Shown: piece after piece, positions 8,964-31,148 of the stretch | Position numbering within the stretch: the first letter of the stretch is position 1 | Layout of the letters: every line of letters begins with the position of its first letter | Origin: Candidatus Kaiserbacteria bacterium RIFCSPLOWO2_01_FULL_54_13 | Lineage (GTDB): Bacteria > Patescibacteriota > Minisyncoccia > Phycocordibacterales > UBA2100 | Assembly: GCA_001781685.1 (NCBI GenBank) | Contig: MFLZ01000015.1 | Coordinates: 41,042-72,189 of the forward strand | Direction of reading: 5' to 3' | DNA length: 31,148 nucleotides | Program-made: the position numbers and the translations under genes | The notes under the pieces: model-generated | Databases searched by the model: none | Seen by the model: the letters and a program-made list of their open reading frames with translations, nothing else | Told to the model about the DNA's origin: nothing

Positions 8964-9016
8964 GTCTCGGAGATCGGGCTGTTTTGCAGCAAATGTGCTA
9001 CATTGTGCCTCTATAT

Positions 9017-10870
9017 ATGTGCGGGATTTTTGCGTATACGGGGAGGAATGGCAAGGATGCGGCGAAGGTCCTCCTTGATGGGCTCGTATCGCTCGAGTAC
9101 CGAGGCTACGACTCCGCGGGGATCTTTACGCCGGAGAGTGGCGCTGTCAAAACTCCCGGCGCGGTTCTCGAATTGAAAAAGAAAGTCCCGAAAGGTTTTA
9201 AGGGAAAAAGCGGAATTGCGCATTTGCGCTGGGCGACGCATGGCGAGCCCACAGAAATAAACGCGCATCCGCACTCGGACTGCGAGGGAGAGGTGTGGGT
9301 TGCGCACAACGGCATCATTGAGAATTTCAAAGAGCTCAAGAAGAAACTCTCAGCAAAGGGACACACGTTTGTTTCCGAATCCGACACGGAAGTTCTCGCG
9401 CATTTGATTGAAGAGCATCTGACCATTCTTCGCCGAGGCTCCGGTGTGGCGAAGAAAGATGTTTTCGAGAGGGCAGTGCTTGCCGCCTTGAATGAAGTGC
9501 GCGGCACATACGGAGTCGCCATTCAGTACAAGGGAGAGCCGGAAAAGCTCATCGCAGGGCGGATGGGCTCGCCCATCGTCTTGGGCCTCGGGAAAAAAGA
9601 GCACTTTATCGCCTCTGATCCTTCTCCGATCCTGAAGCACACGAAGAAGGTCGTGTTTCTCAATGACGGCGATGTTGCAGTTCTTACGCCGAAGTCGCAC
9701 ACGATATACAAACTCTCTAGCGAGCTCGTGAATCGCGAGCCGGAGGAGTTGGACTGGAACGCGGAGGAAGCGCAGAAGGGCGGATACGAGCATTTCATGT
9801 TGAAAGAAGTCATGGAAGCGCCGGAGGTGATCGAGAATACGCTCCGCGGCCGAGTAATTGCCGAAAAAGGTCTCGCGAAGCTCGGCGGACTCGAGTCGGT
9901 GGCGAAGGAGCTCGAGAAAATCGAGCGTATCATCATCGTCGCGTGCGGCACCGCCTACTACGCGGGATTGGTGGGGGAGTACATGCTCGAGGAATTTGCG
10001 GGGATTCCCGTCGAGGTGGAGCTTGGAAGTGAATTCCGCTATCGGAGCCCAGTCTTGAATCAGAGAACGGCTGTTCTCGCAATCTCGCAGTCGGGGGAAA
10101 CCGCCGATACGCTTGCAGCTGTGCGCGAAGGGAAGAAAAAGGGAGCGCTCACGCTCGGCATCGTGAATGCCGTGGGCTCGACAATCGCACGCGAGACGGA
10201 CGCGGGCGTGTACAACCACGCGGGGCCGGAGATCAGCGTCGTTTCGACGAAAGCACTTCTCTCGCAACTTACAGCACTTGCACTACTTACGATGTTTCTT
10301 GGGCGGCAGCGTAAGATGTCCGCGAAGATCGGGAAGGATATAGCGAGAGAGCTGCGGAATCTCCCCGAAAAACTTGAGAAGATTCTCGCGTGGCGCGCAG
10401 AGGTCGAGAAGCTTGCCAAGAAATACGCGGGAACGCGGGATTTCATGTTTATTGGTCGTAAGTACAACTATCCGATCGCCTTTGAAGGGGCGCTCAAATT
10501 GAAGGAATGTTCGTACGTGCACGCGGAAGGTTGCGGCGCGGGCGAGCTCAAGCACGGGCATTTGGCAATGATTTTCGAGGATTTTCCGACGGTCGCGCTT
10601 GTGACCAAAGACAGCGTATATGAAAAGGTTTTTTCAAACATTCAGCAGGTCAAAGCGCGCAAGGGCCCCGTCATCGCTGTCGCGACAGAAGGGGACGAGG
10701 AAATTGCGAAACTTGCCGATGATGTATTCTACGTCCCCAAAACTCTCGAAATGCTCTCGCCGATTTTGAACGTGGTTCCGCTTCAACTCTTCGCCTACTA
10801 CTTCGCACGCGACAAGGGACTCAACGTCGACCGCCCCCGCAACCTCGCGAAGTCGGTTACAGTCGAGTAA
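9017..10870 (+). CDS. glmS: Glutamine--fructose-6-phosphate aminotransferase
   Basis: N-terminal MCGIF (Ntn Cys), EYRGYDSAG, HLRWATHG, HNGIIEN, SQSGETADT, EGALKLKE, DRPRNLAKSVTVE. Confidence 0.98.
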   Translation: MCGIFAYTGRNGKDAAKVLLDGLVSLEYRGYDSAGIFTPESGAVKTPGAVLELKKKVPKGFKGKSGIAHLRWATHGEPTEINAHPHSDCEGEVWVAHNGIIENFKELKKKLSAKGHTFVSESDTEVLAHLIEEHLTILRRGSGVAKKDVFERAVLAALNEVRGTYGVAIQYKGEPEKLIAGRMGSPIVLGLGKKEHFIASDPSPILKHTKKVVFLNDGDVAVLTPKSHTIYKLSSELVNREPEELDWNAEEAQKGGYEHFMLKEVMEAPEVIENTLRGRVIAEKGLAKLGGLESVAKELEKIERIIIVACGTAYYAGLVGEYMLEEFAGIPVEVELGSEFRYRSPVLNQRTAVLAISQSGETADTLAAVREGKKKGALTLGIVNAVGSTIARETDAGVYNHAGPEISVVSTKALLSQLTALALLTMFLGRQRKMSAKIGKDIARELRNLPEKLEKILAWRAEVEKLAKKYAGTRDFMFIGRKYNYPIAFEGALKLKECSYVHAEGCGAGELKHGHLAMIFEDFPTVALVTKDSVYEKVFSNIQQVKARKGPVIAVATEGDEEIAKLADDVFYVPKTLEMLSPILNVVPLQLFAYYFARDKGLNVDRPRNLAKSVTVE

Positions 10871-12215: not shown

Positions 12216-12285
12216 ATCCCGTTAGAAATCACGTCCGCGCTAACGCGCCCGAAGACCCTTCGGGTCAGGCTATTTCTAACGGGAT
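12216..12285. repeat. Y-shaped inverted-repeat element, copy 1 (REP/MITE-like)
   Basis: Perfect 14-bp arms ATCCCGTTAGAAAT (12216-12229) / ATTTCTAACGGGAT (12272-12285) enclosing GCGC-TAAC-GCGC and GACCC-TTC-GGGTC hairpins. Confidence 0.8.
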
Positions 12286-14461: not shown

Positions 14462-16828
14462 TTAGTATCCTTTGTTCTTGATGAGCATTTCCAAGAGCTC
14501 TCGCGGATAGATCGGCTTATTCTCTGCGAGTGCCTGGTGGTAGAGCACCGTCGAGGGTGTGAGGCCCGGAAGAGTATTGACTTCGATCACGAGGAGCTCG
14601 CCAGTGCGGATATGCGCAAAGGCGTCAACGCGCGAGTATCCCGTAATCCCGAGCTCCCGCGCGAGTTTCTCTGTTCGCTCGCGGATTTTTTGAACGACCA
14701 GCGGCTTCATCACAGAGGGCGGCGGCGGCGTGAGGTTGACGCCCGTTCCACCTTGGAATTTCTCCTCGACGGAGAGCACCTCGCCTTCGGCAATCGTTAT
14801 TGAAGGATTCAAGGCGTGGATACGGCCCTCTTTTTCGACGACGCCGACCGTAATCTCGACGAAGCCGCTTTTCTTTGTGTGCTTGAGCGAATTATTGCGC
14901 ACGCGCAAGACGTCTGTTTCCACGAATCGCTCGAATATCAAATACTCGGGCGTTTCAGGCGGCATCTCGATGATGTTCGTTTGACTCCTAAAGGTGCCGA
15001 GTGATGCATGCGCCACTTTGCGCCTTAGGACATCGAGGTAGGAGCGCAAGTCAGTCGCAGTATAGAGATGCACAACGCCCGTTGAACATCCGTCGCTGCG
15101 AGGTTTTACCACGAGAGAGCGGGCCGAAAGCGTCTTTTTTATACCGCTCCAGAATCTATTGACGGCACTTTCGTTCATAGCAAGGAGCGCCTTCGTCCCA
15201 GCGATGGTGCCCACTGTGGCTCCAACGCCTTCAATGTTCGCTCTTCGAATGTGTTCCGCTGTCGCCCACTTGTCCATGCAGAGTTTCGACGTGCGGGCCC
15301 CCGGCCCGTTGAAGGGAATCTTGTGTTTCGCCAAGCGCATTTGAAGCGTTCCGTCTTCTCCTTCGCCACCGTGGAGCGCGTTGAAAAGGAAGCGGCTTTC
15401 GCCCGTGAGTTCGTCGAGAGTCATCCGAATAGGGTCGAAGAACTCTCGTGCATTCTTTTTGGCCGAGAAGCCGAGGTGCAGACGCGCTCGCTCCTCGTAC
15501 ATTTCCAAGCGCTTTTTCGCGCTCTCGTAGTTCCTGCAATTCTCGGCGATCTCTTCGACCGTGTGGTTAAGCGTCAGATGATAGGGGAGTCTCCAGACGG
15601 TCTTCCCGTCGGTCTCCAAGAGGTATGGATTCGGTTCGTAGAGCTGCGATCTGCGGAGTTTCAGCCACACGTTGGTGCCGCTCATCAAAGAAACCTGCCG
15701 CTCGGAAGTGGGGCCGCCGAAGAGTATGCGCACCGGCTTTCTCACATGGCGGACGAACGATTCCTCGGGCAAGGTGATTCCATATCTTCGCGCGGCGCTC
15801 TCGAGAATGAAGTGCAGGACCCCGCGGTGGCTCATGCCCACGCGCGAGCCCTGCTGGAAGAGAAAACTGTTCTGCTCCATACCGGAGACGATGTTGAAGT
15901 CACAAAACCAGATCTCGCCCCCCGGAAGTATCCAGCCGTCGAAGCGCGCGAAATCGCGCATCCCGAAAAGCGCAAAGAGTTGCTCAGCCTGCGCCTGAAT
16001 GCGCTCGATCGCGAAGTCGTCGAAACGTGGCGGGCTGTGATACGTGACATGACGGGTAGGGAGGTACTTTTTCCTGAAATCGAATATCTGATGCTCTGAG
16101 TAATCGATTTCCATCTCCGTCGGGGGAAGTGCCACTGGAAGTCCGAATCTGTTTTGCAGAATGATGACAGTGAATTCTTTTCCCTCGGCAAATTGTTCAA
16201 CCACTACTCGCGTGTCGGCCCGCTTGGAAAAGAGATACCGTACTCTCTCGAGAGCTTGCTCGGGGGTTGAGACGGAGAATACGCCGATCGAAGAGCCGCC
16301 ACTTGCGGGCTTCACTACGGCGCGCTTGATTGCATGCTCTTTGAAAAAGTCTCGAATGATCTTGGGATGGTCCTTTCCGTAGATTTTTAAAAGTGCGGAT
16401 GGAAGCGTAAAGAAGCCGTTTTGTTTGATAAACTCGTTCCCCGCGTATTTGTCGAATGCCTGCTTGCAACTTCGTGAGCTGGAACCCACGAACGGTATCT
16501 GATGCTTTTCGAGGAACTGCTGGATGCCGCCGTCCTCACCGTAGGCTCCGTGCATCGTGGGAAATACGATGCCTGTTTCCCTGAGAGCGCGGACAAATTG
16601 TTTGGTAGTGAGTGGATGTGCAGCGTGCTTCAGTTTGAAGTCGAAGTCGGATGGCGTGTTGCTGTAGAGCTGAGCGGGGGAAATACTGTAGGCGTTTCTT
16701 TTTTGATCAAGGTAAAAAGGCACAATCTCCATCGAATCTGATGAAAGGTGGTCCAAGACGGAACGCGCGGAATTGAGCGAGATCCCCCTCTCAGGGGAAG
16801 GACCGCCGCAGATAAGTCCGATTTTCAC
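14462..16828 (-). CDS. ddl: Tandem two-module D-alanine--D-alanine ligase (ATP-grasp), 788 aa
   Basis: GTG start. Module 1: CGGPSPERGISLNS, HGAYGEDG, VKPASGGSSIG, FRKKY, ARFD. Module 2: FGGPTSERQVSLMSG, HGGEGEDG, VKPRSDGCSTG, EEKF, SRVD, EVNTLPG. Confidence 0.9.
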   Translation of the reverse strand: MKIGLICGGPSPERGISLNSARSVLDHLSSDSMEIVPFYLDQKRNAYSISPAQLYSNTPSDFDFKLKHAAHPLTTKQFVRALRETGIVFPTMHGAYGEDGGIQQFLEKHQIPFVGSSSRSCKQAFDKYAGNEFIKQNGFFTLPSALLKIYGKDHPKIIRDFFKEHAIKRAVVKPASGGSSIGVFSVSTPEQALERVRYLFSKRADTRVVVEQFAEGKEFTVIILQNRFGLPVALPPTEMEIDYSEHQIFDFRKKYLPTRHVTYHSPPRFDDFAIERIQAQAEQLFALFGMRDFARFDGWILPGGEIWFCDFNIVSGMEQNSFLFQQGSRVGMSHRGVLHFILESAARRYGITLPEESFVRHVRKPVRILFGGPTSERQVSLMSGTNVWLKLRRSQLYEPNPYLLETDGKTVWRLPYHLTLNHTVEEIAENCRNYESAKKRLEMYEERARLHLGFSAKKNAREFFDPIRMTLDELTGESRFLFNALHGGEGEDGTLQMRLAKHKIPFNGPGARTSKLCMDKWATAEHIRRANIEGVGATVGTIAGTKALLAMNESAVNRFWSGIKKTLSARSLVVKPRSDGCSTGVVHLYTATDLRSYLDVLRRKVAHASLGTFRSQTNIIEMPPETPEYLIFERFVETDVLRVRNNSLKHTKKSGFVEITVGVVEKEGRIHALNPSITIAEGEVLSVEEKFQGGTGVNLTPPPPSVMKPLVVQKIRERTEKLARELGITGYSRVDAFAHIRTGELLVIEVNTLPGLTPSTVLYHQALAENKPIYPRELLEMLIKNKGY

Positions 16829-22000: not shown

Positions 22001-22321
22001 ATGAAAAAAGAAGCAAAGAAAACAAAAATCAACATTCAGCCTGTGGGCGACCGGATATTGGTTAAGCCTGAGGAGGTGGAGGACAAAAAATCACCGGGAG
22101 GCATCATAATTCCTGACACAGCGCAGAAGGAGAAGCCCGAGCGCGGGAGGGTGATCGCAGTGGGGCCGGGAAAACGCGGCGACGACAACGAACTCATCCC
22201 TGTTTCGGTCAAAGTGGGTGACAGAGTGATGTTTTCGAAGTACGGATACGATGAAGTGAAAATAGACGACGATGAGTACTACATCGTCTCAGAATCAAAC
22301 GTCTTGGCCGTCCTTAAATGA
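22001..22321 (+). CDS. groS: Co-chaperonin GroES
   Basis: IQPVGDRILVK, GGIIIPDTAQKEKP..GRVIAVGPG, VKVGDRVMFSKYG. Confidence 0.97.
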   Translation: MKKEAKKTKINIQPVGDRILVKPEEVEDKKSPGGIIIPDTAQKEKPERGRVIAVGPGKRGDDNELIPVSVKVGDRVMFSKYGYDEVKIDDDEYYIVSESNVLAVLK

Positions 22322-22334
22322 GTTTGGTGGATTT

Positions 22335-22369
22335 ACTACGTACTACACACTACTAACTACAAACTATTC
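22335..22369. repeat. Tandem heptamer array (5 units) before groEL
   Basis: ACTACGT ACTACAC ACTACTA ACTACAA ACTATTC, ending 2 nt before ATG 22372. Confidence 0.75.
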
Positions 22370-22371
22370 CT

Positions 22372-24027
22372 ATGGCAGGCAAACAAGTCATTTTCGATCA
22401 AGAAGTGCGCAGCGCTCTCAAGCGCGGCGTCGATATCGTCGCAGGAGCCGTGAAGGTAACACTCGGCCCGAAGGGCAGAAACGTTGCATTGAGCAAATCG
22501 TGGGGAGGCCCCACGATAACTAACGACGGCGTCTCGATCGCCAAGGAAATCTCTCTCGAGGACAAGTTCGAGGACATGGGAGCTTCGATCGTAAAAGAGG
22601 TCGCCACAAAAACCAACGACAAGGCGGGCGACGGCACCACGACTGCCGTCGTTCTCACGCAGGCGATCGTGCACGAGGGCCTGAAGCGCACAGCTCTGGG
22701 AGCGAACGCAATGATGGTTAGACACGGGATTGAAGCTGCGGCGAAAGACGCAGTAGAAGAACTCAGGAAGATGGCAAAGGATGTGAAGGGCAAAAGCGAG
22801 ATCCGGCAGGTTGCGTCGATTGCCGCAGAATCCGAGGAGCTCGGCGAGAAAATCGCGGAGGTCGTCGGCAAAGTGGGCAAAGATGGCGTTGTCACTGTCG
22901 AAGAGTCTCAAGCGACGGGGATTGATTCCGAGTACGTCGAGGGCATGGAATTCGACAAAGGCTATGTCTCGGCGTACATGATTACAAACGCGGAGCGGAT
23001 GGAAGCCGAAGTAAAAGACGCGCCGATTCTTGTGACCGACAAAAAGATTTCCACGATCAAGGATATCCTGCCGCTTTTAGAGAAAGTTGCACAGTCGGGG
23101 AAGAAAGATCTCTGCATCATCGCCGACGATGTGGACGGTGAGGCATTGGCCACGTTTGTCGTGAATAAACTTCGCGGCGTATTTAATGTGCTCGCGGTGA
23201 AGGCTCCGGGCTACGGCGACAGGAAGAAAGAAATGCTTGCAGATATCGCGATCACGGTGGGTGCACAGGTGATTTCCGAAGATCTCGGGCTCAAGCTCGA
23301 GAATGCGGAACTGAACATGCTCGGGCGCGCGTCGCGCGTTGTTGCCACCAAGGATTCTACCGTAATCGTCGGCGGCAAGGGAAAGAAGTCGGACATTGAG
23401 GCCCGCGTCGCATCTTTGCGCAAGCAGCTCGAAAACACCGATTCGAAATTCGATCGCGAGAAACTTGAAGAGCGCGTTGCAAAGCTCACGGGAGGCGTTG
23501 CGGTAATTCGCGTGGGCGCGGCGACGGAAACGGAAATGAAGTATCTCAAAGATAAAATTGAAGACGCAGTCAATGCGACTAAGGCCGCGATTGCGGAGGG
23601 GATCGTGCCCGGCGGAGGCGCCGCGCTCGCGAAAGCTGCCGAGAAACTCGGAAAAAAGATCAATACGAAGGCGCACGACGAGTACACGGTCGGCTATCGG
23701 ATACTTCTCTCTGCGCTCTCGGCGCCGCTTCTCCAGATCGCAGAAAACGCGGGGCGACAGGATTCCGCGGTCGTCTTGCAGGAAGTTGTGAAGCGAGGAG
23801 GAGCATTTGGGTTCAACGCTCTTGCCGAATCCGATGAGAACGCGATCGTCGACATGTATGAGGCGGGCATCATTGATCCCGTGAAGGTGACGAGGAGTTG
23901 TGTTGAGAATTCCGCCTCTGCGGCAGCAGTGCTTCTCACTACCGAAGCCGCCGTGGCCGAAATCCCCGAGAAGAAAAGCTCTGCCCCTTCTCAGAGCGGG
24001 ATGGGAGGTGGCATGGATGAGATGTGA
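22372..24027 (+). CDS. groL: Chaperonin GroEL
   Basis: VTLGPKGRNV, TNDG, AGDGTTTA, KAPGYGDRK, EGIVPGGG, GIIDPVKV, GGM tail. Confidence 0.98.
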   Translation: MAGKQVIFDQEVRSALKRGVDIVAGAVKVTLGPKGRNVALSKSWGGPTITNDGVSIAKEISLEDKFEDMGASIVKEVATKTNDKAGDGTTTAVVLTQAIVHEGLKRTALGANAMMVRHGIEAAAKDAVEELRKMAKDVKGKSEIRQVASIAAESEELGEKIAEVVGKVGKDGVVTVEESQATGIDSEYVEGMEFDKGYVSAYMITNAERMEAEVKDAPILVTDKKISTIKDILPLLEKVAQSGKKDLCIIADDVDGEALATFVVNKLRGVFNVLAVKAPGYGDRKKEMLADIAITVGAQVISEDLGLKLENAELNMLGRASRVVATKDSTVIVGGKGKKSDIEARVASLRKQLENTDSKFDREKLEERVAKLTGGVAVIRVGAATETEMKYLKDKIEDAVNATKAAIAEGIVPGGGAALAKAAEKLGKKINTKAHDEYTVGYRILLSALSAPLLQIAENAGRQDSAVVLQEVVKRGGAFGFNALAESDENAIVDMYEAGIIDPVKVTRSCVENSASAAAVLLTTEAAVAEIPEKKSSAPSQSGMGGGMDEM

Positions 24028-24068
24028 TAGAGAAATAAGGAGCTGCTGCGACTATATTTCTCATCATC

Positions 24069-24109
24069 CAGCACCATTTTGCGCTTTTGACATGCGCAAA
24101 ATGGTGCTG
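24069..24109. repeat. Perfect 16-9-16 inverted repeat downstream of groEL
   Basis: CAGCACCATTTTGCGC-TTTTGACAT-GCGCAAAATGGTGCTG. Confidence 0.85.
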
Positions 24110-24165
24110 TGGTAAGGCCTAATTCTGTATCTCGACTGGATATCTCGGCGTTAACTATTGCACTC

Positions 24166-24231
24166 GCCCCGTTAGAGAAAAGTCGCAATGCGGCTGAAGC
24201 GAAGCTCCTGCGGAGCGTTCTCTAATGGGGT
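24166..24231. repeat. Y-shaped inverted-repeat element, copy 2
   Basis: CCCCGTTAGAGAA (24167-24179) / TTCTCTAATGGGG (24218-24230) enclosing AGTCGC-AAT-GCGGCT and GCTCC-TGC-GGAGC hairpins. Confidence 0.8.
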
Positions 24232-24284
24232 TATCCCCCGAGATTCGGGCTAAATAGCCTCAGGACACGCTACTATATTGACGT

Positions 24285-27200
24285 ATGCCCACCTCTCGTG
24301 TTGCGGCAGTTTTTTTCGTTACCTTATTTCTGGTAGTGCCGCTTTTAGTCCGCGCGCAGGGTACGGTGGACATGACGGCTGACGCCAAATGCAAACCTGT
24401 GTTTCCTGAGTGCAGGTGCGGTCAGAAACCTAATCCGAATAAGAGCGCAAACGCACCGAAATGTGTTGGCGGCGAGAACATGAATCAATGTTTCTGCGAG
24501 AACGACAATGGACAGGCGGGCGGTATTTGCGTCGCGCTAAAGAACTGTAAGGGGACTTGGTATAGAGATTTGGATGGCGAGCGAATTGAAATCAAAGATC
24601 CTGCCAAGGCATGGCAGGAATTTCAGAATCAAGTCAAAGCAGCAACTCCGAAGCCTCCGGGCCCAGTGCCCGGCGGAGACTACTACAGTGAGGGGTTTGC
24701 ACTACCTCCCGGTTCGGGAGCAGGGACAACAGAGGGTGGCGCGCTTCAGGGTTTGGGCCCAGAGAATTTTGAGGACGTGACACCGATTACGCCGCAGCCG
24801 CAGATCCCATCAGGACCCAGTCTATTGGAGATGTTGGGACCATATTATTTTCGTCCGCAGGAAACCACACCCACATTTGAACCTCCTCCGCCAACAGGGC
24901 CCAATGTCGTGCCGGGTGTGAGCGGAGACACAACGGGGCTGGTGCAACCTAGCACAGCCAACCTTTTTAATTTTAATGAGGAGGGATTCACGGAGCAACC
25001 ATTCTCGGCGGACACATTCGGTGAAAGCACGCTCAAATCATCCTCGGCAGACAGTTGCGATGGCTTTTTTTACTGCGCATATAAAACCGTTGCGGATGGT
25101 TTCCAGGAGCTATTTGGAATTGGTCCTGCAGAGGCAAAGCCATTTTCGGGAACAGAGCCGATACGGATAGGGCCGGACGGTCGCATTAATGCTGTCGATT
25201 TTTACAACACAGCCCTGGAAAAATTTAAGGACTCTTCTCTAAATGGTTACGCGCCACCGGGGTTGAGACGGTTTGGAGTTGAGACCGGTAGCCCTGAAGA
25301 ATGGGCACGTTTAGCCACTATGGTCGCAATGCAAGAATCCAGTCTTCGCGTTGCTCCTGTAAACCCGGATGGGACATTGCAAAGATTCCCAACAACCCCA
25401 GCAGGAGAGCAATCCTACGGGCCGATGCAATTTACTAAAGGAGAGTATGGGCTTCAAACGTGGGCCGACGTGAACAATCCAGACAGAGTCATTGATGCGT
25501 TCGTACAAGTTGCCGAGCAAGGCCAATTGTTTAACTATTTTGGATCGTTGCAGAGACCTAACGAGACCTTGCAGCATAGGTCTTGGTTTCAAGCAAATGT
25601 TGCTCCGTACACAGCGGCCCAGCCGACATACGACGCAAATTCCGGCGGAACTGACACAAGTGGGTTCATTACCGCATTCGGCGGTGGAACACCGCCGACG
25701 GTGGCAAGTCTCGATCCTTCCGCAGGCATGGGATCTGCGTTCGACGAAGCCGGATTTACGAGCGCCTACTCCCGCAGTGCTGCTGGCAAGGTCGCCGACT
25801 TCGTCGGTCTTGGCGGCGTGTACGACACCGTTGCCGGGGGAGTAGTTGACGCGTACGGGACTGTTTCCACCGGTGCTACGGTTCTTGGACAAACCGTATC
25901 GGAGAAAGTCGCAGAAAGTGCCCAAACAGTAGGTAGCGCGATTGATGCGACGAGAGAATACATATCCGAACGTTTTGCGGACGGACTCCGGGTTGTTGAT
26001 GAGAATGTATTTGGAGGCATCGGTACGAAGAGGGGCCTTATTCCTCTTCCTCCACCCTCACCGGTAGCCGTGTACACACCCAGTGGCGAGCCACCATTTA
26101 CTACAGAAATTACCTACGCTGACAGGCCATACGATATCTACACTGAAGCCGACTTGTCTCCGCAGACTGCACGTCCCTTGACGTATGGAGAGCAATTGCG
26201 TGCAGGAATGCCGCTGATGCCAATATCGGGGCCAGCTATTGCGGCACGACTTCCAGAGACACCGTCTGGATCCATGGAATTCGCAGGATTAGAACCTACA
26301 AGATCGGATCTTGAGTTCGCAGGAACTCCACCCACGCGGCTCGGTGAGGGCGGCAGAGTGAGCGACCTCGTCGCTGTTCCCAATCAACCGGGAAATGTAC
26401 CACCTCCAGTTGCCAAATATACACCCAGTGGCGAGCCACCATTCCCCGAAATTTCCAATCCGGACAAGCCTTCCTCAGGGTACTATGACGCATTTGGGGG
26501 AGAGTACTCCACTCAAGCTGAGGCAACAGCCGCCGATTCTTTTTTTGAGAGGAATGCCACACGCATAAACGAACTTGAAGTGAAGGTGGATTCGTTGAGG
26601 CAAGGCATCGAAAAAGCCCAGACTGATTCTCTGCGGGATAGCTGGGTCGGCCGAGCTCTTGGAATGGAGCCCAACACAGATCCGCAAACACCGATACGAT
26701 CGTTTTGGGAATCTGAGTACATAAAGACCCAGAAGGAGCTTATTGGGTTGCGGAGGGCAGATCTGGAGCAGAAAATTTATTCTGCAACGACTCCAGAACA
26801 AATCAGCGAGCTCACCGCACAGCTGAATGCACAGACGGGAGAGCTCGAGAGCCTTCAGACACTGCAACAAACCATTAACAATACATTGAGCGACGGTAGT
26901 CTTGTGGGCGGGATGACGTCTGAGGAGCTGGCAGCCCGGTATAAAGCGACCCTTTCTGGGTTTGAGACTCAGGGAACCGACTGGCAGAGCATACTTGCAA
27001 ATGCACGGGATGGCAGACTATCCGGACTCGGTGATGTTATCGCTGCAAATGATCTAGCGCGAATGGGAGATGCGCTTGCGCAACGCCAATTTGATGTGGC
27101 CGCGATCGCGGATGGCACAAGTCCACTGTTGCAACCTTCACGAGTCGCAAGTCTTGATGGCGGTGGGACACCGCCGACGGTGGCAAGCCTCAATCCTCCC

Positions 27201-29276
27201 GCAGACATGGAATTGTTCAACGAAGCCTTCGGCCAAGTGTCTCCCGCAGAAGCTTTCTCAACAAATGAGTTTGCGGGATTTCCGTCCATACCACCCTCTC
27301 TCCTTGAACGTGCTACAGGATTCGTCGTTGAGGGGTACACCGGTGCCACGGATCTTGCGCAAAATGCTTTGGGGACAGTCACAGACACACTTTCGAACAT
27401 AGGGCAAAAGGCCCAAGAACTTTTGGCCAGTGGAAACAATTGGCTCGACAGCAATGTCCGCGGACCGCTTGTCGACCTTGGCGTGCTCTCTCCGGGGGTA
27501 CTCGGAAGCGATGTAGCTCCAGTAACAGTACCAACAACTGCCGCGGAAACAGGAGAGATCAACCTGCGTGGGGGAGGATATGTACCACCAGGGGAACAAC
27601 CAGAAGCAGGATTCCTTACCGCCTACGGCTTGGATCCCTTTGAGAAATCACTTGAGGCGCAAGAACAACCTGCAAACATCACGGAAGGCGCACCTGTCGA
27701 TCCTTCGGTCGAGCGAGAATTTGCCTTCCAGGCGGCCGCTGAACGTTCGCCGTACCGCCTACCTGCCGACCTCGAAAGGCAACAAATCGCACAGCGTCAG
27801 GCCGAGTTCCTCGCAGAAGAGCGCGCTGCTGCCCAGGCGGAGCAACCAGAAACGGCCCCTTCCAGATGGCAAACATTCACAGAGGGTGTGAGAAATTGGT
27901 TGGTCGGTCCGCCTGTTGAGAACGTTATCGAGAGATGGGTTGCAGAAAACAGATCAGAGCTGCTGCAGCCGTCCATGGAATTCGCAGGATTAGAACCTAC
28001 CAGATCGGATCTTGAGTTTGCAGGATCTCCGTCCACCCCACTCGGACAAAGTGGCATCGGAAGCGACGCGGCGCGTGTACCAGATCAACCGGGAAATGCG
28101 CCTCCTGCCTACGAAGGGAGGACGAAGTACGAGGGGCATTCCATCGTTGATACCCTGAAGGGCGATGGGCAGGGGTCTAGCTACGGTGAACGTAAAGTTC
28201 TTGCAAAGCAACTCGGCATCGCAAACTACCGTGGGACGGCGGCGCAAAATCTGCAGATGGTTGCACTCATGCGAGAGTGGAGCCCGGAATTCGGAGGACT
28301 AACAGCCCAACAACTACAGCCAGCGGTAACTTCTGGCGTGGATACTGGGTCAGGAGTCGGCGCATCACCTGCCTCTGGGCCAACTTCCTCTTTTGGAGAA
28401 GCTTTCAGGGGTGGTTACCAGAGTGCCAACGATCCTGTCACTGGGGCCGCGTTGGGCCTGTGGGAAGGCGGGAAATACCTCTATAATGCCACAGCAGATT
28501 GGGCGGCAAGAACGGGTACGATTCCTCAGTCTAGCGTCGATGAGGCAGGGTTCATGAATGCCTTTCTTGCGCCAGATAACTTGCAACAGTCAGTTGAGGC
28601 AATTGAGGATACTATTGCAGGATCTCAAGCGCCCGCTCCAGACTTCGGACCTGCGTTCAATGAAGCGTTCGGTACCGCGCCGCTGCCAAGCGCGTGCTAT
28701 GGCTCATCGGTTGCTGATTGCGTTGGAGCGTCTGGTGGCAATTGGAGCACCGAGAGGGCAAGACTTGCGGGGATAGTCGGCTGTGCTGCAGGTACCGCTA
28801 GCTGTAACACTGAAATCTTGCGTCGGATACAGGCGGGAGACTTAGTTGTTGCCTCACCTGCTACTTCGGGGAATGAGGCACCGTTGGGTCCGGCACCGAC
28901 AGTTTCCAGTGCCAATCCGGGCGCGGGTACTTCAGCGACAACGGCACCGCCACCAGATCCGATGACAAGGAATGCACAGGCTTTTCAGAACTCCTTAAGT
29001 AGACTGAATAGAAAAATGGATACGTTCTTGAATAATCCTACCGACCAGACTCTTCAAAGCCTAGCTCGGCAAGCACAAGCTGTTCAGAGATGGGCCAGCA
29101 TGTTCCCGAAAGACAGTTATATTCAATCTGAAGCAGCGAAGATTAGTGGGTTGCCGCAGGCATCAAACTATTTACCGGCGGTTGTTGCCACCGTACTTAC
29201 CCGTCAGTATGGGGCAATTTCGGCAGGGATTAGTACCGTCCGGACGCATCTCAGTAGAAATTACACCAAGAAGTAG
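24285..29276 (+). CDS. Giant secreted/surface protein (1663 aa): signal peptide, Cys-rich domain, lysozyme-like/lytic transglycosylase-like domain, repeats, coiled coil, two DUF3597-like modules
   Basis: Uninterrupted 5 kb ORF. Hydrophobic N-terminus ending VRA; AMQESS and SYGPMQF motifs; SIVDTL..SSYGERKVLAKQLGI..YRGTAAQN. Confidence 0.8.
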   Translation: MPTSRVAAVFFVTLFLVVPLLVRAQGTVDMTADAKCKPVFPECRCGQKPNPNKSANAPKCVGGENMNQCFCENDNGQAGGICVALKNCKGTWYRDLDGERIEIKDPAKAWQEFQNQVKAATPKPPGPVPGGDYYSEGFALPPGSGAGTTEGGALQGLGPENFEDVTPITPQPQIPSGPSLLEMLGPYYFRPQETTPTFEPPPPTGPNVVPGVSGDTTGLVQPSTANLFNFNEEGFTEQPFSADTFGESTLKSSSADSCDGFFYCAYKTVADGFQELFGIGPAEAKPFSGTEPIRIGPDGRINAVDFYNTALEKFKDSSLNGYAPPGLRRFGVETGSPEEWARLATMVAMQESSLRVAPVNPDGTLQRFPTTPAGEQSYGPMQFTKGEYGLQTWADVNNPDRVIDAFVQVAEQGQLFNYFGSLQRPNETLQHRSWFQANVAPYTAAQPTYDANSGGTDTSGFITAFGGGTPPTVASLDPSAGMGSAFDEAGFTSAYSRSAAGKVADFVGLGGVYDTVAGGVVDAYGTVSTGATVLGQTVSEKVAESAQTVGSAIDATREYISERFADGLRVVDENVFGGIGTKRGLIPLPPPSPVAVYTPSGEPPFTTEITYADRPYDIYTEADLSPQTARPLTYGEQLRAGMPLMPISGPAIAARLPETPSGSMEFAGLEPTRSDLEFAGTPPTRLGEGGRVSDLVAVPNQPGNVPPPVAKYTPSGEPPFPEISNPDKPSSGYYDAFGGEYSTQAEATAADSFFERNATRINELEVKVDSLRQGIEKAQTDSLRDSWVGRALGMEPNTDPQTPIRSFWESEYIKTQKELIGLRRADLEQKIYSATTPEQISELTAQLNAQTGELESLQTLQQTINNTLSDGSLVGGMTSEELAARYKATLSGFETQGTDWQSILANARDGRLSGLGDVIAANDLARMGDALAQRQFDVAAIADGTSPLLQPSRVASLDGGGTPPTVASLNPPADMELFNEAFGQVSPAEAFSTNEFAGFPSIPPSLLERATGFVVEGYTGATDLAQNALGTVTDTLSNIGQKAQELLASGNNWLDSNVRGPLVDLGVLSPGVLGSDVAPVTVPTTAAETGEINLRGGGYVPPGEQPEAGFLTAYGLDPFEKSLEAQEQPANITEGAPVDPSVEREFAFQAAAERSPYRLPADLERQQIAQRQAEFLAEERAAAQAEQPETAPSRWQTFTEGVRNWLVGPPVENVIERWVAENRSELLQPSMEFAGLEPTRSDLEFAGSPSTPLGQSGIGSDAARVPDQPGNAPPAYEGRTKYEGHSIVDTLKGDGQGSSYGERKVLAKQLGIANYRGTAAQNLQMVALMREWSPEFGGLTAQQLQPAVTSGVDTGSGVGASPASGPTSSFGEAFRGGYQSANDPVTGAALGLWEGGKYLYNATADWAARTGTIPQSSVDEAGFMNAFLAPDNLQQSVEAIEDTIAGSQAPAPDFGPAFNEAFGTAPLPSACYGSSVADCVGASGGNWSTERARLAGIVGCAAGTASCNTEILRRIQAGDLVVASPATSGNEAPLGPAPTVSSANPGAGTSATTAPPPDPMTRNAQAFQNSLSRLNRKMDTFLNNPTDQTLQSLARQAQAVQRWASMFPKDSYIQSEAAKISGLPQASNYLPAVVATVLTRQYGAISAGISTVRTHLSRNYTKK
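26271..28025 (+). repeat. Intragenic 54-nt duplication (26271-26324 and 27972-28025)
   Basis: Both encode SMEFAGLEPTRSDLEFAG; 2 mismatches, both synonymous. Further pairs: 25680-25712/27159-27191 (33 nt) and 26076-26098/26421-26443 (23 nt identical). Confidence 0.9.
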
Positions 29277-29318
29277 AAGGTATAGTCGTCGCCGTTTGTT
29301 CGCAGGAGGGGCGCGAGA

Positions 29319-29327
29319 TGATATAAT
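29319..29327 (+). promoter_or_regulatory. Consensus extended -10 box, leaderless geometry (lemA)
   Basis: TGA-TATAAT, 6 nt, ATG at 29334. Confidence 0.7.
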
Positions 29328-29333
29328 GCGCAC

Positions 29334-29894
29334 ATGACAACAGGCTGGGTACTTTTAGGAGCAGTTGCGGTAGTCGTCTTGTGGGCGATCTGGGCGTACA
29401 ACCGTTTCGTTCAACTCACGAATCGCTCGGAGGAAGCGTGGTCCGACATCGACGTGCAGCTCAAGCGTCGGTACGACCTCATTCCGAATCTCATCGAGAC
29501 AATTAAGGGCTACGTGACACACGAGCGGGGAACTCTGGAGAGCGTTACGAACGCGCGCACGAAGGCGATGGGAGCACAAAGTGTTGCCGAGCACGCGGCT
29601 GCGGAAAATATTCTGACTGGGGCACTCAAGACATTGTTTGCTGTTGCGGAGAATTATCCAAACCTGAAAGCGAATGAAAACTTTGTCGAGCTCCAGCGCG
29701 AGCTCTCCGACACCGAGAACAAAATTCAAGCAGCGCGCCGCTTCTACAACTCTGTCGTGCAAGAGCTACAGAACGCAATAGAAATGTTTCCCTCAAACCT
29801 CATTGCAAACATGTTCCGTTTCAAGACGCGCGATTTTTTCGCTCTTGATGAGAGCGAAAACGCAGCTCGTAATCCAGTGAAGGTCAGTTTCTAA
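29334..29894 (+). CDS. lemA: LemA family protein
   Basis: N-terminal TM, YNRFV, AWSDIDVQLKRRYDLIPNL, AVAENYPNLKANENF..LQ..ENKIQAARRFYN, FPSNLIA. Confidence 0.96.
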   Translation: MTTGWVLLGAVAVVVLWAIWAYNRFVQLTNRSEEAWSDIDVQLKRRYDLIPNLIETIKGYVTHERGTLESVTNARTKAMGAQSVAEHAAAENILTGALKTLFAVAENYPNLKANENFVELQRELSDTENKIQAARRFYNSVVQELQNAIEMFPSNLIANMFRFKTRDFFALDESENAARNPVKVSF

Positions 29895-29901
29895 ATGTGA
29901 A

Positions 29902-30504
29902 ATGAGGAAAAGGGACATTGAAGGGTTTCCGTCACGAAACAGAGGATCTACTGAACACCCCGAGAAAGAGTGGCATCCTCTTATAAGGTTCGTGGGCCCC
30001 GAGGGTTCGTTCGGGGAAGAAGCGAAGTTACACCTTAAAGAATTTGATGTTGAGGATGTCGACTGGTTTAAGTCGGCAGGGCAACAGGAAAATACCCATC
30101 ATATTATCAGTGGTATTAATTCTAGGCGTAAAGCATCGTCCGGATACCTTGTATGCACAGGCGTTGTGGCTTTGGGATTCAATCCAAAGTTACGAACCAA
30201 CGTGTCCTTCTTAACGCATCAGACCTCGTCCGCGTGGAAGTTTGACTTTGAATTCGTCAAGCAACTACGGTTCTCACTCCGGACTTTCGCTCGACAAACA
30301 GATGGGACCAAGCGGTCGCTTCTTATATTTACGCCGCCAATACGTGTGGAAAAAGATAGGGAGTCTCTCGAAATTATCAAGAGGATTATTCTTGAAGAAC
30401 TTGGAGTTGAATCGGATGTTGCCGAGATCAAAGAGGAGTTAATTGACGCTTTTGATGTTATGCTCGATACAGAACACGCACGGATTTTTATTACTTACAC
30501 TTAA
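29902..30504 (+). CDS. Hypothetical protein with a CheD/CNF1-like Cys..His motif, 200 aa
   Basis: Fills the lemA-htpX gap exactly. SSGYLVC85TGVVALG..SFLTH106Q; AT-rich. Confidence 0.65.
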   Translation: MRKRDIEGFPSRNRGSTEHPEKEWHPLIRFVGPEGSFGEEAKLHLKEFDVEDVDWFKSAGQQENTHHIISGINSRRKASSGYLVCTGVVALGFNPKLRTNVSFLTHQTSSAWKFDFEFVKQLRFSLRTFARQTDGTKRSLLIFTPPIRVEKDRESLEIIKRIILEELGVESDVAEIKEELIDAFDVMLDTEHARIFITYT

Positions 30505-30507
30505 GTT

Positions 30508-31148
30508 ATGGCATCTCTCTACACAGAGCAAGGAAAAAACATCCGCAAGACGTGGTTTTTGATGACCGGGTTTTTGGTCATTGTTATCGCGCTAGGGTGG
30601 ATCGTATCGCAAGTGTATGACAACGCCGGCATTCTCTACATCGCGGTCGCGTTCTCACTTTTCATGAATGTCACTGCGTACTGGTTCTCGGACAAGATTG
30701 CTCTTGCCGCGACGGGTGCCAAGGAGGCGGACGAACGCGAGTACCGCGAATTGCATCGTTTGCTCGAGAATCTCGCAATCACCGCGGGGCTCCCGAAGCC
30801 GCGGCTATATGTCATCAACGATCCGCAGCCGAACGCGTTTGCGGCAGGGCGCAATCCCAAACACGCGGTCGTCACTGTCACGACGGGACTTCTCTCACGG
30901 CTTGAACGCTCCGAGCTCGAAGGAGTAATTGCGCACGAGCTTTCGCACATCGGGAATCGCGACATTCTTGTGATGACGGTCGCTGTTGTCTTGGCGGGAT
31001 TCATCGCCATTATCTCAGATATCTTTTTGCGCATGAGTTTCTTCGGGAGCGGCAACAGGGAACATCGCAATCCAGTTCTCATGATCGCGGGCATCGTTGC
31101 AATTGTGATCGCGCCTCTCGCGGCGCAGCTCATTCAGCTAGCAGTTTC
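30508..31148 (+). CDS. htpX: Zinc metalloprotease HtpX (M48), 3'-partial
   Basis: Hand translation from ATG 30508: MASLYTEQGKNIRKTWFLM..YWFSDK..LPKPRLYVINDPQPNAFAAGRNP..TTGLL..EGVIAHELSH (HExxH). Not in the ORF track because it runs off the window. Confidence 0.95.
   Translation, partial: MASLYTEQGKNIRKTWFLMTGFLVIVIALGWIVSQVYDNAGILYIAVAFSLFMNVTAYWFSDKIALAATGAKEADEREYRELHRLLENLAITAGLPKPRLYVINDPQPNAFAAGRNPKHAVVTVTTGLLSRLERSELEGVIAHELSHIGNRDILVMTVAVVLAGFIAIISDIFLRMSFFGSGNREHRNPVLMIAGIVAIVIAPLAAQLIQLAV

Follow-up and report, generated by a model that had tools for sequence, protein, structure and literature searches.

A giant exported protein with a predicted lysozyme-type domain, encoded in a hypervariable groEL-lemA slot of a groundwater Kaiserbacteria genome

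The stretch of DNA analysed here (hereafter the window: 31,148 nucleotides of Candidatus Kaiserbacteria bacterium RIFCSPLOWO2_01_FULL_54_13, contig MFLZ01000015.1, positions 41,042 to 72,189 of the forward strand) contains, between groEL and lemA, a giant gene whose product, P0001, combines a predicted catalytic head of a diverged lysozyme-type family with a long low-complexity spacer and putative wall-binding modules. The giant gene is real, and the architecture described in an initial annotation of the window is largely correct. Our interpretation builds on the export signal of P0001, the fold, conserved catalytic signature and domain associations of its head, and the synteny and variability of the slot that it occupies. 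We consider it likely that P0001 is an exported murein glycosidase; more tentatively, we propose that this modular enzyme acts mainly on the wall of another cell, a host or a partner. The source genome (873 kb, 87% complete) comes from a groundwater metagenome, and the window lies on a 73-kb contig of it. The gene and its parts are as follows (aa, amino acids).

24285..29276, plus strand: giant gene for P0001, a single open reading frame (ORF) of 1663 aa from the most upstream start codon
24285..24356, plus strand: predicted Sec-type signal peptide, aa 1-24 (n-region with Arg5, 17-residue hydrophobic core, VRA|QG)
24372..24569, plus strand: 8-Cys module, aa 30-95 (Cys 36, 43, 45, 60, 69, 71, 82 and 88)
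24612..24989, plus strand: Pro/Gly-rich linker, aa ~110-235, by composition
25167..25619, plus strand: predicted lysozyme-superfamily catalytic domain, aa 295-445, from a conserved family profile and a predicted fold
25335..25337, plus strand: codon of Glu351, the predicted general-acid residue
25680..28079, plus strand: low-complexity spacer, aa 466-1265 (~800 aa), by composition, no family matches
26550..26894, plus strand: helix-prone stretch claimed as a coiled coil, aa 756-870 (sub-threshold NPV_P10 and DUF16, Pro-free runs)
28122..28280, plus strand: module 1, aa 1280-1332, DUF3597-like putative wall-binding unit (PHROG lysin matches)
28692..28832, plus strand: module 2, aa 1470-1516, four Cys, weakly similar to module 1 (Smith-Waterman, alignment A3)
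28959..29261, plus strand: predicted C-terminal helical domain, aa 1559-1659 (single-sequence AlphaFold2 (AF2) model), no transmembrane segment

A diverged lysozyme-type domain

A HMMER search with residues 255-470 of P0001 against 1.84 billion protein representatives returned a family of 178 clusters at E ≤ 1e-3 and 38 at E ≤ 1e-30, whose members are 145-2948 aa long and carry the domain at varying positions. In an alignment of 67 of these sequences E351, Q382 and F419 are invariant; S352, which is kept in 65 of the 67, is near-invariant, as are G379, G420, R424 and P399. The signature of the domain, in P0001 numbering, is W340-A-R, Q-E351-S, G-E375-x-S-Y-G379-x-x-Q382-F and Y418-F419-G-S-x-x-R424-P-x-E427. 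When the family profile was compared with the PDB, it matched the predator enzyme DslA (6TA9/6TAF, E 0.025) and c-type lysozymes, with E351 falling on the catalytic Glu, i.e. on E35 of hen lysozyme and E143 of DslA. A search of the PDB with the single sequence of residues 280-470 gave chance matches only. Among the 67 relatives themselves, 18 match Pfam SLT at E < 0.01 and 11 match Phage_lysozyme2.

The AF2 model of the domain, computed from the family alignment, has a pLDDT of 92.5 and a pTM of 0.87. Its predicted fold is of the alpha+beta lysozyme type, with a beta-sheet floor and flanking helices, and model helix 53-68 has E351 at its C-terminal end. We compared the fold by Foldseek, then by a second look with VIA-align and then by a wide structural search. 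In the ESM Atlas the shape matches were SLT clusters, at TM 0.47-0.60. The Enc34-type endolysin structure 7Q47 was absent from both the structural and the profile matches of the domain. The SLT and DslA sequence links, the invariant E351, the AF2 model and the shape matches together support a lysozyme fold with a conserved general acid, and hence the lysozyme-like domain that had been read from the sequence; that it is catalytic is a prediction from sequence and model.

Three further acids of the domain, D362, E375 and E427, are conserved, D362 in 32 of the 67 sequences. Since the third motif of GH23 enzymes is missing and these extra acids are present, the mechanism may be that of a hydrolase rather than of a lytic transglycosylase, with Asp362, Glu375 or Glu427 as the candidate second acid. 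Full-length homologues pair the domain with PG_binding_1, Peptidase_M23, M15 or CHAP, and these associations are strong evidence by association for a murein substrate. The family is strongly diverged, most like GH23 enzymes and DslA, and unannotated in current libraries; because those libraries miss it, it deserves a family model of its own.

Integrity of the gene and architecture of P0001

The ORF claimed at 24285-29276 on the plus strand agrees exactly with ours: its 4992-nt frame is open and uninterrupted over 1663 codons for amino acids, and its start is conserved. Full-length P0001 is present on two contigs of the protein collection, and its closest named relatives come from metagenome-assembled genomes (MAGs) of 'Candidatus Paceibacterota', the 'Parcubacteria group' and 'Candidatus Saccharibacteria'. 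The G+C content of the gene is similar to that of the remainder of the window. Logan unitigs, built from the source run by an independent assembler, cover the ORF in overlapping tiles at an even depth of ~8, and exact fragments of the enzymatic and middle regions occur at low depth in two other groundwater runs, X2 and X3 (the X2 and X3 pieces are identical, and the two runs are possibly duplicate filings of a single data set). No single public contig covers the entire ORF and the unitigs break near internal repeats, which lends some weight to the misassembled chimera that the initial annotation had named as a caveat; the overlapping unitigs, the even depth and the exact fragments in further samples argue otherwise.

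Residues 1-32 are the sole strongly hydrophobic segment of P0001 (Kyte-Doolittle 2.49 in a 19-residue window) and are followed by the VRA|QG motif listed above; similar N-termini are found in slot proteins of two genomes of the same genus (congeners), G014 and G011. These features agree with the signal peptide proposed earlier, of predicted Sec type. Identity as a lipoprotein was rejected for lack of a lipobox Cys, and a C-terminal membrane anchor or sortase signal for lack of a hydrophobic segment and of an LPXTG motif.

The 8-Cys domain that follows is likewise borne out: eight Cys lie between residues 36 and 88, and five of them (C36, C43, C71, C82 and C88) do not vary across an alignment of seven proteins, namely P0001 and six others from Candidate Phyla Radiation (CPR) bacteria. 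The aligned set includes proteins from another locus in two congeners. No match to the module was found in Pfam, PHROG or the Atlas, the Atlas feature search included. In two otherwise unrelated congener proteins (L002:1492-3006, 504 aa, and L003:502-1890, 462 aa) the same signal peptide and 8-Cys module form the head; each of their genes is preceded by a conserved 212-aa ORF, and one of the two loci adjoins a LAGLIDADG endonuclease and a DNA polymerase A fragment. The Pro-rich linker is evident from composition, Pro making up 18% of residues 101-200.

Beyond the head the earlier description is less well borne out. The ~800-aa middle is of low complexity and holds three repeat pairs, C (466-496/959-992), B (591-622/706-736) and A (626-707/1188-1274), which are also seen as DNA repeats of 78-89% identity; they are dispersed in the order C-B-A-B-C-A and not arranged in tandem. 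Likeness of the spacer to a congener slot protein is confined to aa 733-936, at 24% identity. The coiled coil reduces to two helix-prone stretches of ~30 aa broken by Pro, with sub-threshold matches only (NPV_P10, E 0.015).

Of the two modules claimed as DUF3597-like, module 1 matches phage lysin families, phrog_2307 (L-Ala-D-Glu peptidase, E 2.1e-11) and phrog_5182 (endolysin, E 2.8e-5), and is homologous to C-terminal modules of the G014 and G017 slot proteins; its score against DUF3597 itself (PF12200) is 24.4 bits, below the cut-off of 29.8, over profile positions 70-111 of 127, i.e. the C-terminal third. A PDB search with module 1 gave chance matches only. Module 2 is the best non-self match to module 1 within P0001 (Smith-Waterman score 39 versus 20 ± 3.7 for shuffles, z 5.2, reached by 0 of 2000 shuffles); it has no BLASTP match to module 1 and no Pfam or DUF3597 match, and the link between the two is thus a weak one. 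The last ~100 residues are predicted to be helical, as had been claimed, in a single-sequence AF2 model of residues 1260-1663 that reaches a pLDDT of 80-88 for 1559-1659 only and is unreliable elsewhere (49.5 overall). A homologue search with the C-terminal 404 residues recovered P0001 itself only.

The groEL-lemA slot and phage relatives of the domain

The borders of the slot in the window are the following.

22001..24027, plus strand: groES-groEL, conserved left border (family matches, synteny)
29334..31146, plus strand: lemA, a 200-aa ORF and htpX, which runs off the window, conserved right border (family matches, synteny)

The lemA-htpX locus had been recognised before; groES-groEL lies upstream. 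In searches that included one for related loci with an alignment of 15 close family rows, the domain was found at two recurrent chromosomal positions. Position A, in which groES-groEL is followed by a giant protein with the domain and then by lemA and/or htpX, is shared by the window and four other genomes, whose giants are 1149, 1476, 2663 and 2948 aa long. Compared with the slot-A orthologue P0005, the head of P0001 is 64% identical and the N-terminal Cys module 33% identical, and no alignment is possible downstream of the catalytic head. In one genome an IS200/IS605-type Y1 transposase (L016:3420-4160) separates groEL from the 2663-aa slot protein and may hint at a route by which slot contents are exchanged.

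Position B, found in Parcubacteria and Saccharibacteria MAGs, holds domain proteins of 382-692 aa that immediately follow the atp operon and precede an RND/MMPL-type transporter. Its loci are L018:8001-10288 and L019-L022; in L018 the domain gene is overlapped by an RNHCP zinc-ribbon gene that comes next, and the transporter lies on the opposite strand. The initial annotation had singled out P0001 as a candidate for an undescribed system; as an isolated case it does not stand, the domain family comprising 178 clusters and recurring at fixed positions in several CPR genomes.

A search of 24 same-genus and 16 same-order genomes, most of them >90% complete, did not find the domain, which is therefore dispensable for growth in close relatives. 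With whole P0001 as the query, only the N-terminal Cys module and module 1 recur in these 40 genomes. In the congeners lemA is 62-83% and groEL 81-89% identical, and the slot between them is filled as follows.

G014: a 1572-aa protein ending in a module-1-type unit
G016: an 832-aa protein with PG_binding_1
G011: a 1904-aa protein
G020: an 826-aa and a 2389-aa protein
G002: a 725-aa protein (PG_binding_1, sub-threshold DPBB) and a 448-aa protein
G005: empty, lemA directly after groEL
G017: a protein truncated by the contig end, with a module-1-type unit at its C-terminus

Those congener slot proteins that have an intact N-terminus start in a signal peptide-like manner, and modules are shared among the slot proteins in a mosaic pattern.

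The domain also occurs in phages. In one phage locus a protein with M23 and the domain is encoded downstream of a capsid gene, and in another a protein with CHAP and the domain lies between tail-tube/chaperone and baseplate genes, i.e. at the tape-measure position. Eighteen IMG/VR contigs carry the domain, none of them with cellular marker genes, and nine belong to a single capsid-bearing lineage. The lineage formed by L008, L030, L031 and L035-L041 has a conserved order of capsid gene, 834-aa protein, 1000-1400-aa domain protein and then a >2000-aa protein; its members are possibly phages of CPR bacteria. In a domain tree (quick IQ-TREE, SH-aLRT support only, unrooted) sequences from phages stand next to cellular ones. 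One 30-row group (SH-aLRT 93) takes in every protein whose context is known to be cellular and holds no sequence known from a phage or IMG/VR contig, the context of 22 of the 30 rows being unknown; within the tree, three slot-A proteins form a clade with a support of 99, with P0001 beside it. We found no phage genes and no secretion genes in the window. A prophage or tape-measure identity of P0001 itself was rejected, given its cellular context, the lack of phage genes and a synteny common to four other cellular genomes.

As to the immediate flanks, lemA has a promoter-like site of its own (29299-29327), and the giant gene is therefore probably a transcription unit apart from lemA. The intergenic region between groEL and the giant gene (24028..24284, plus strand) is strongly structured (RNA fold z -4.65) and contains a perfect 16-bp hairpin without a T-tail at 24070-24110, as well as, at 24166-24231, a small element whose ends are inverted arms (CCCGTTAGA...TCTAAYGGG) and whose centre reads CGAAG..CCT.CGG; arms and centre recur at 12216-12285. 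The 200-aa ORF between lemA and htpX (29902-30504), for which a deamidase function had been suggested, has no Pfam or NCBIfam match, and that label is unsupported; the ORF is missing at the lemA-htpX position in relatives, where L006 has a DUF2207 protein and G017 and L017 have nothing. Other neighbours are RNase J and an SBP, and the window is otherwise housekeeping; GlmS is encoded at 8984-10870. The label of double-length D-Ala-D-Ala ligase for the 788-aa ORF at 14462-16828 (minus strand) is that of the initial annotation and is unconfirmed.

Elsewhere the genome carries MltG and two CE4 deacetylases. PG_binding_1 has fourteen matches in ~twelve ORFs of 126-1109 aa across the 873 kb (C15:7598-7777, C12:7477-9582, C28:6958-8269 and C30:22495-22683 among them), an unusually large number of putative wall-binding secreted proteins. 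Type IV pilus ATPases are encoded on other contigs, and no VirB4-type ATPase (AAA_10, CagE_TrbE_VirB) was found in the 87%-complete genome. The earlier alternative that P0001 remodels its own wall around a secretion or pilus apparatus consequently has no support from the neighbourhood, with its housekeeping flanks, no VirB4 and the pilus ATPases elsewhere; likewise, a VirB1 role in a type IV secretion system (T4SS) was rejected, as no VirB4 was found in the 87%-complete genome and no secretion genes adjoin.

Proposed target and likeness to known systems

In the mechanism that we propose, an uncultured, ultra-small groundwater CPR bacterium of Paceibacteria/Parcubacteria type would export a ~170-kDa modular peptidoglycan glycosidase by the Sec route, and Glu351 of the Q-E-S motif would protonate the MurNAc-GlcNAc glycosidic bond. 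The binding modules would hold P0001 on a murein wall after export, and the head, on its spacer, could reach out to nick distant glycan strands. We infer the enzymatic activity, wall binding, tethering and target from the features described above. When the wall of another cell is set against the organism's own wall, we judge the former somewhat more likely as the target. Pointers in the outward direction are that the domain was not found in the 40 relatives, that the genome has a separate MltG, that a conserved head is joined to an unalignable downstream region, that the domain is common to phage structural modules, and that the slot is hypervariable; further ones are the likeness to a predator enzyme, DslA, and the reach that the long spacer would give.

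Several observations weigh against this proposal. Neither whole P0001 nor any of eight segments matched a catalytic family in Pfam, NCBIfam or PHROGs, the profile match to DslA is marginal, and Foldseek against the PDB gave E-values that are all near 1, though its list consists nearly entirely of lysozymes and transglycosylases. Module 2 is barely detectable, and wall binding by DUF3597-type modules has never been experimentally tested (PMC11674121). The flanking genes are housekeeping genes, and the short position-B proteins, too, look like housekeeping proteins. A search for RNA runs listed none. Finally, the organism makes its own murein (Ddl and GlmS in the window, MltG and CE4 in the genome), so enzyme and binding modules could be at work on the wall of the very cell that makes them.

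The last point leads to the alternative that survives best, namely that P0001 is an autolysin or remodeller of its own wall, used in growth, division or turnover, whose modules anchor it non-covalently to its own murein and whose spacer is unconstrained. In its favour, the neighbours of the gene (groESL, lemA, htpX) serve housekeeping and envelope quality control, its position is kept in several CPR genomes, short proteins with the same domain follow the atp operon in two CPR classes, P0001 is the sole copy of the domain in a genome with the murein synthesis genes just named, and the fourteen PG_binding_1 matches suggest that wall-anchored secreted proteins are common there. Against such a role stand the failure to find the domain in the 24 same-genus and 16 same-order genomes and a congener in which lemA directly follows groEL; moreover, a housekeeping MltG is already present, and both the extreme length and the unalignable tails would be unusual for a core autolysin. 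On balance we regard an own-wall role as possible and rather unlikely.

The preferred target, another cell's wall, can be extended into a wider scheme for Paceibacteria-type episymbionts, in which the groEL-lemA slot would work as a cassette that sets host range, with a giant tethered lysin peculiar to each lineage. A particular host surface would be recognised by the variable tail and binding modules, the DslA-like head would tell host from self by wall chemistry (e.g. N-acetylation), the partner wall would be opened locally without self-harm, and exchange of heads with the phages of these bacteria would supply variants. We offer this scheme as a speculation with a low probability of being right.

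A second alternative is that P0001 is a non-catalytic surface adhesin or coat, in which the lysozyme-like domain would only bind glycans, comparable to alpha-lactalbumin-like, inactive lysozyme homologues, and the remainder would form a flexible fibril. The bulk of the protein is indeed of low complexity and free of enzymatic domains, and no Pfam model of a catalytic family scores on it. Loss of the catalytic Glu is typical of inactive lysozyme homologues (PMC7511926), whereas in 67 diverged sequences of the present family the general-acid Glu is invariant and its Ser neighbour near-invariant, with several further polar residues strictly kept; in addition, relatives combine the domain with other wall hydrolase domains. 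A purely adhesive function is thus very improbable in our estimation. Least probable of all, at a level that we would call slight, is that the gene came from a phage (as a tail or tape-measure lysin since domesticated, or as what is left of a prophage, without a present role in the cell), that it is a chimera made in assembly or that the ORF is not expressed: the phage structural modules with the domain (tape-measure position included), the 18 IMG/VR contigs, nine with a recognisable capsid gene, the neighbourhood of phage and cellular sequences in the tree and the unitig breaks speak for it, and the conserved housekeeping flanks without phage genes, the chromosomal position common to four other genomes, the tree group that takes in the known-cellular proteins and no sequence known from a phage or IMG/VR contig, the G+C content, the even and overlapping read support and the intact 4992-nt frame with its conserved start speak against it.

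How ultra-small CPR bacteria attach to partner cells and draw resources from them is largely unknown beyond a few cultured Saccharibacteria. P0001 offers a concrete, testable candidate: a conserved, unannotated lysozyme-type domain family that CPR chromosomes and phages have in common, borne by giant secreted proteins that change fast while their chromosomal address is fixed. Should the target be the wall of a partner, the slot would be a host-specificity marker readable from metagenomes; should it be the cell's own wall, P0001 would represent a new class of autolysins for a huge and poorly understood part of bacterial diversity.

Among characterised enzymes, the best profile match is DslA (Bd0314), a deacetylation-specific lysozyme from Bdellovibrio bacteriovorus, which itself lives on other bacteria. 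DslA is, and P0001 is predicted to be, a secreted lysozyme-superfamily enzyme, the fold of DslA being a modified one nearest to GH23, and the ES motif of P0001 falls on E143. DslA uses E143 and E154 in catalysis and is specific for de-N-acetylated prey murein (PDB 6TA9; PMC7511926). However, DslA is a 254-aa single-domain enzyme with ~15% identity to the P0001 domain, and the position of E154 corresponds, in the hidden Markov model alignment, to Asp362, which is D in 32 of the 67 sequences, a gap in 25 and invariant only in a close subgroup of 15. For the strictly conserved Y228-W229 motif, which blocks N-acetyl groups in DslA (PMC7511926), Y418 (52/67) and F419 (67/67) are candidate counterparts only. 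With the GH23 family-1 transglycosylases (Escherichia coli Slt70 and MltE, Pseudomonas aeruginosa MltF, phiKZ gp144) P0001 has in common E-S at a helix end and a G-x-x-Q akin to GLMQ. It differs from them in that Pfam SLT (PF01464) has no match to P0001 at E ≤ 10 and none in the genome, in that the third motif AYNxG is missing from its family, which has Y-F-G-S-x-x-R-P-x-E instead, and in a long beta-hairpin insert between motifs I and II.

Large modular autolysins of Gram-positive bacteria act on their own wall and have well-defined repeat domains; P0001 resembles them as a very long secreted protein with a wall-cutting domain on extended sequence. Virion-associated hydrolases (tape-measure and tail proteins; phi29 gp13) are linked to it by the same domain family, which large phage proteins combine with M23 or CHAP, but P0001 is encoded at a conserved chromosomal site without phage genes and is equipped with a predicted Sec signal peptide and modules of wall-binding type, neither of which a virion protein requires. 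VirB1-type hydrolases of T4SSs (PrgK, TraG of pIP501), which have been reported in Patescibacteria with an extra M23 or LysM (PMC12102498), are similarly large secreted proteins with a lysozyme/SLT-type domain and other wall modules; here, in contrast, no VirB4 was found in the 87%-complete genome. The giant proteins of Omnitrophota ('Archaeovorins') have occasional SLT domains and have been proposed to attack the wall of another cell (bioRxiv 10.1101/2023.11.21.568195); they likewise place a wall-cutting domain on long non-enzymatic sequence, but belong to another phylum, are ten-fold larger and have no sequence relation to P0001. To the modular peptidoglycan hydrolases P0001 thus adds an unannotated lysozyme-type domain family and a hypervariable locus; attack on a host is a plausible, though conjectural, function of the protein.

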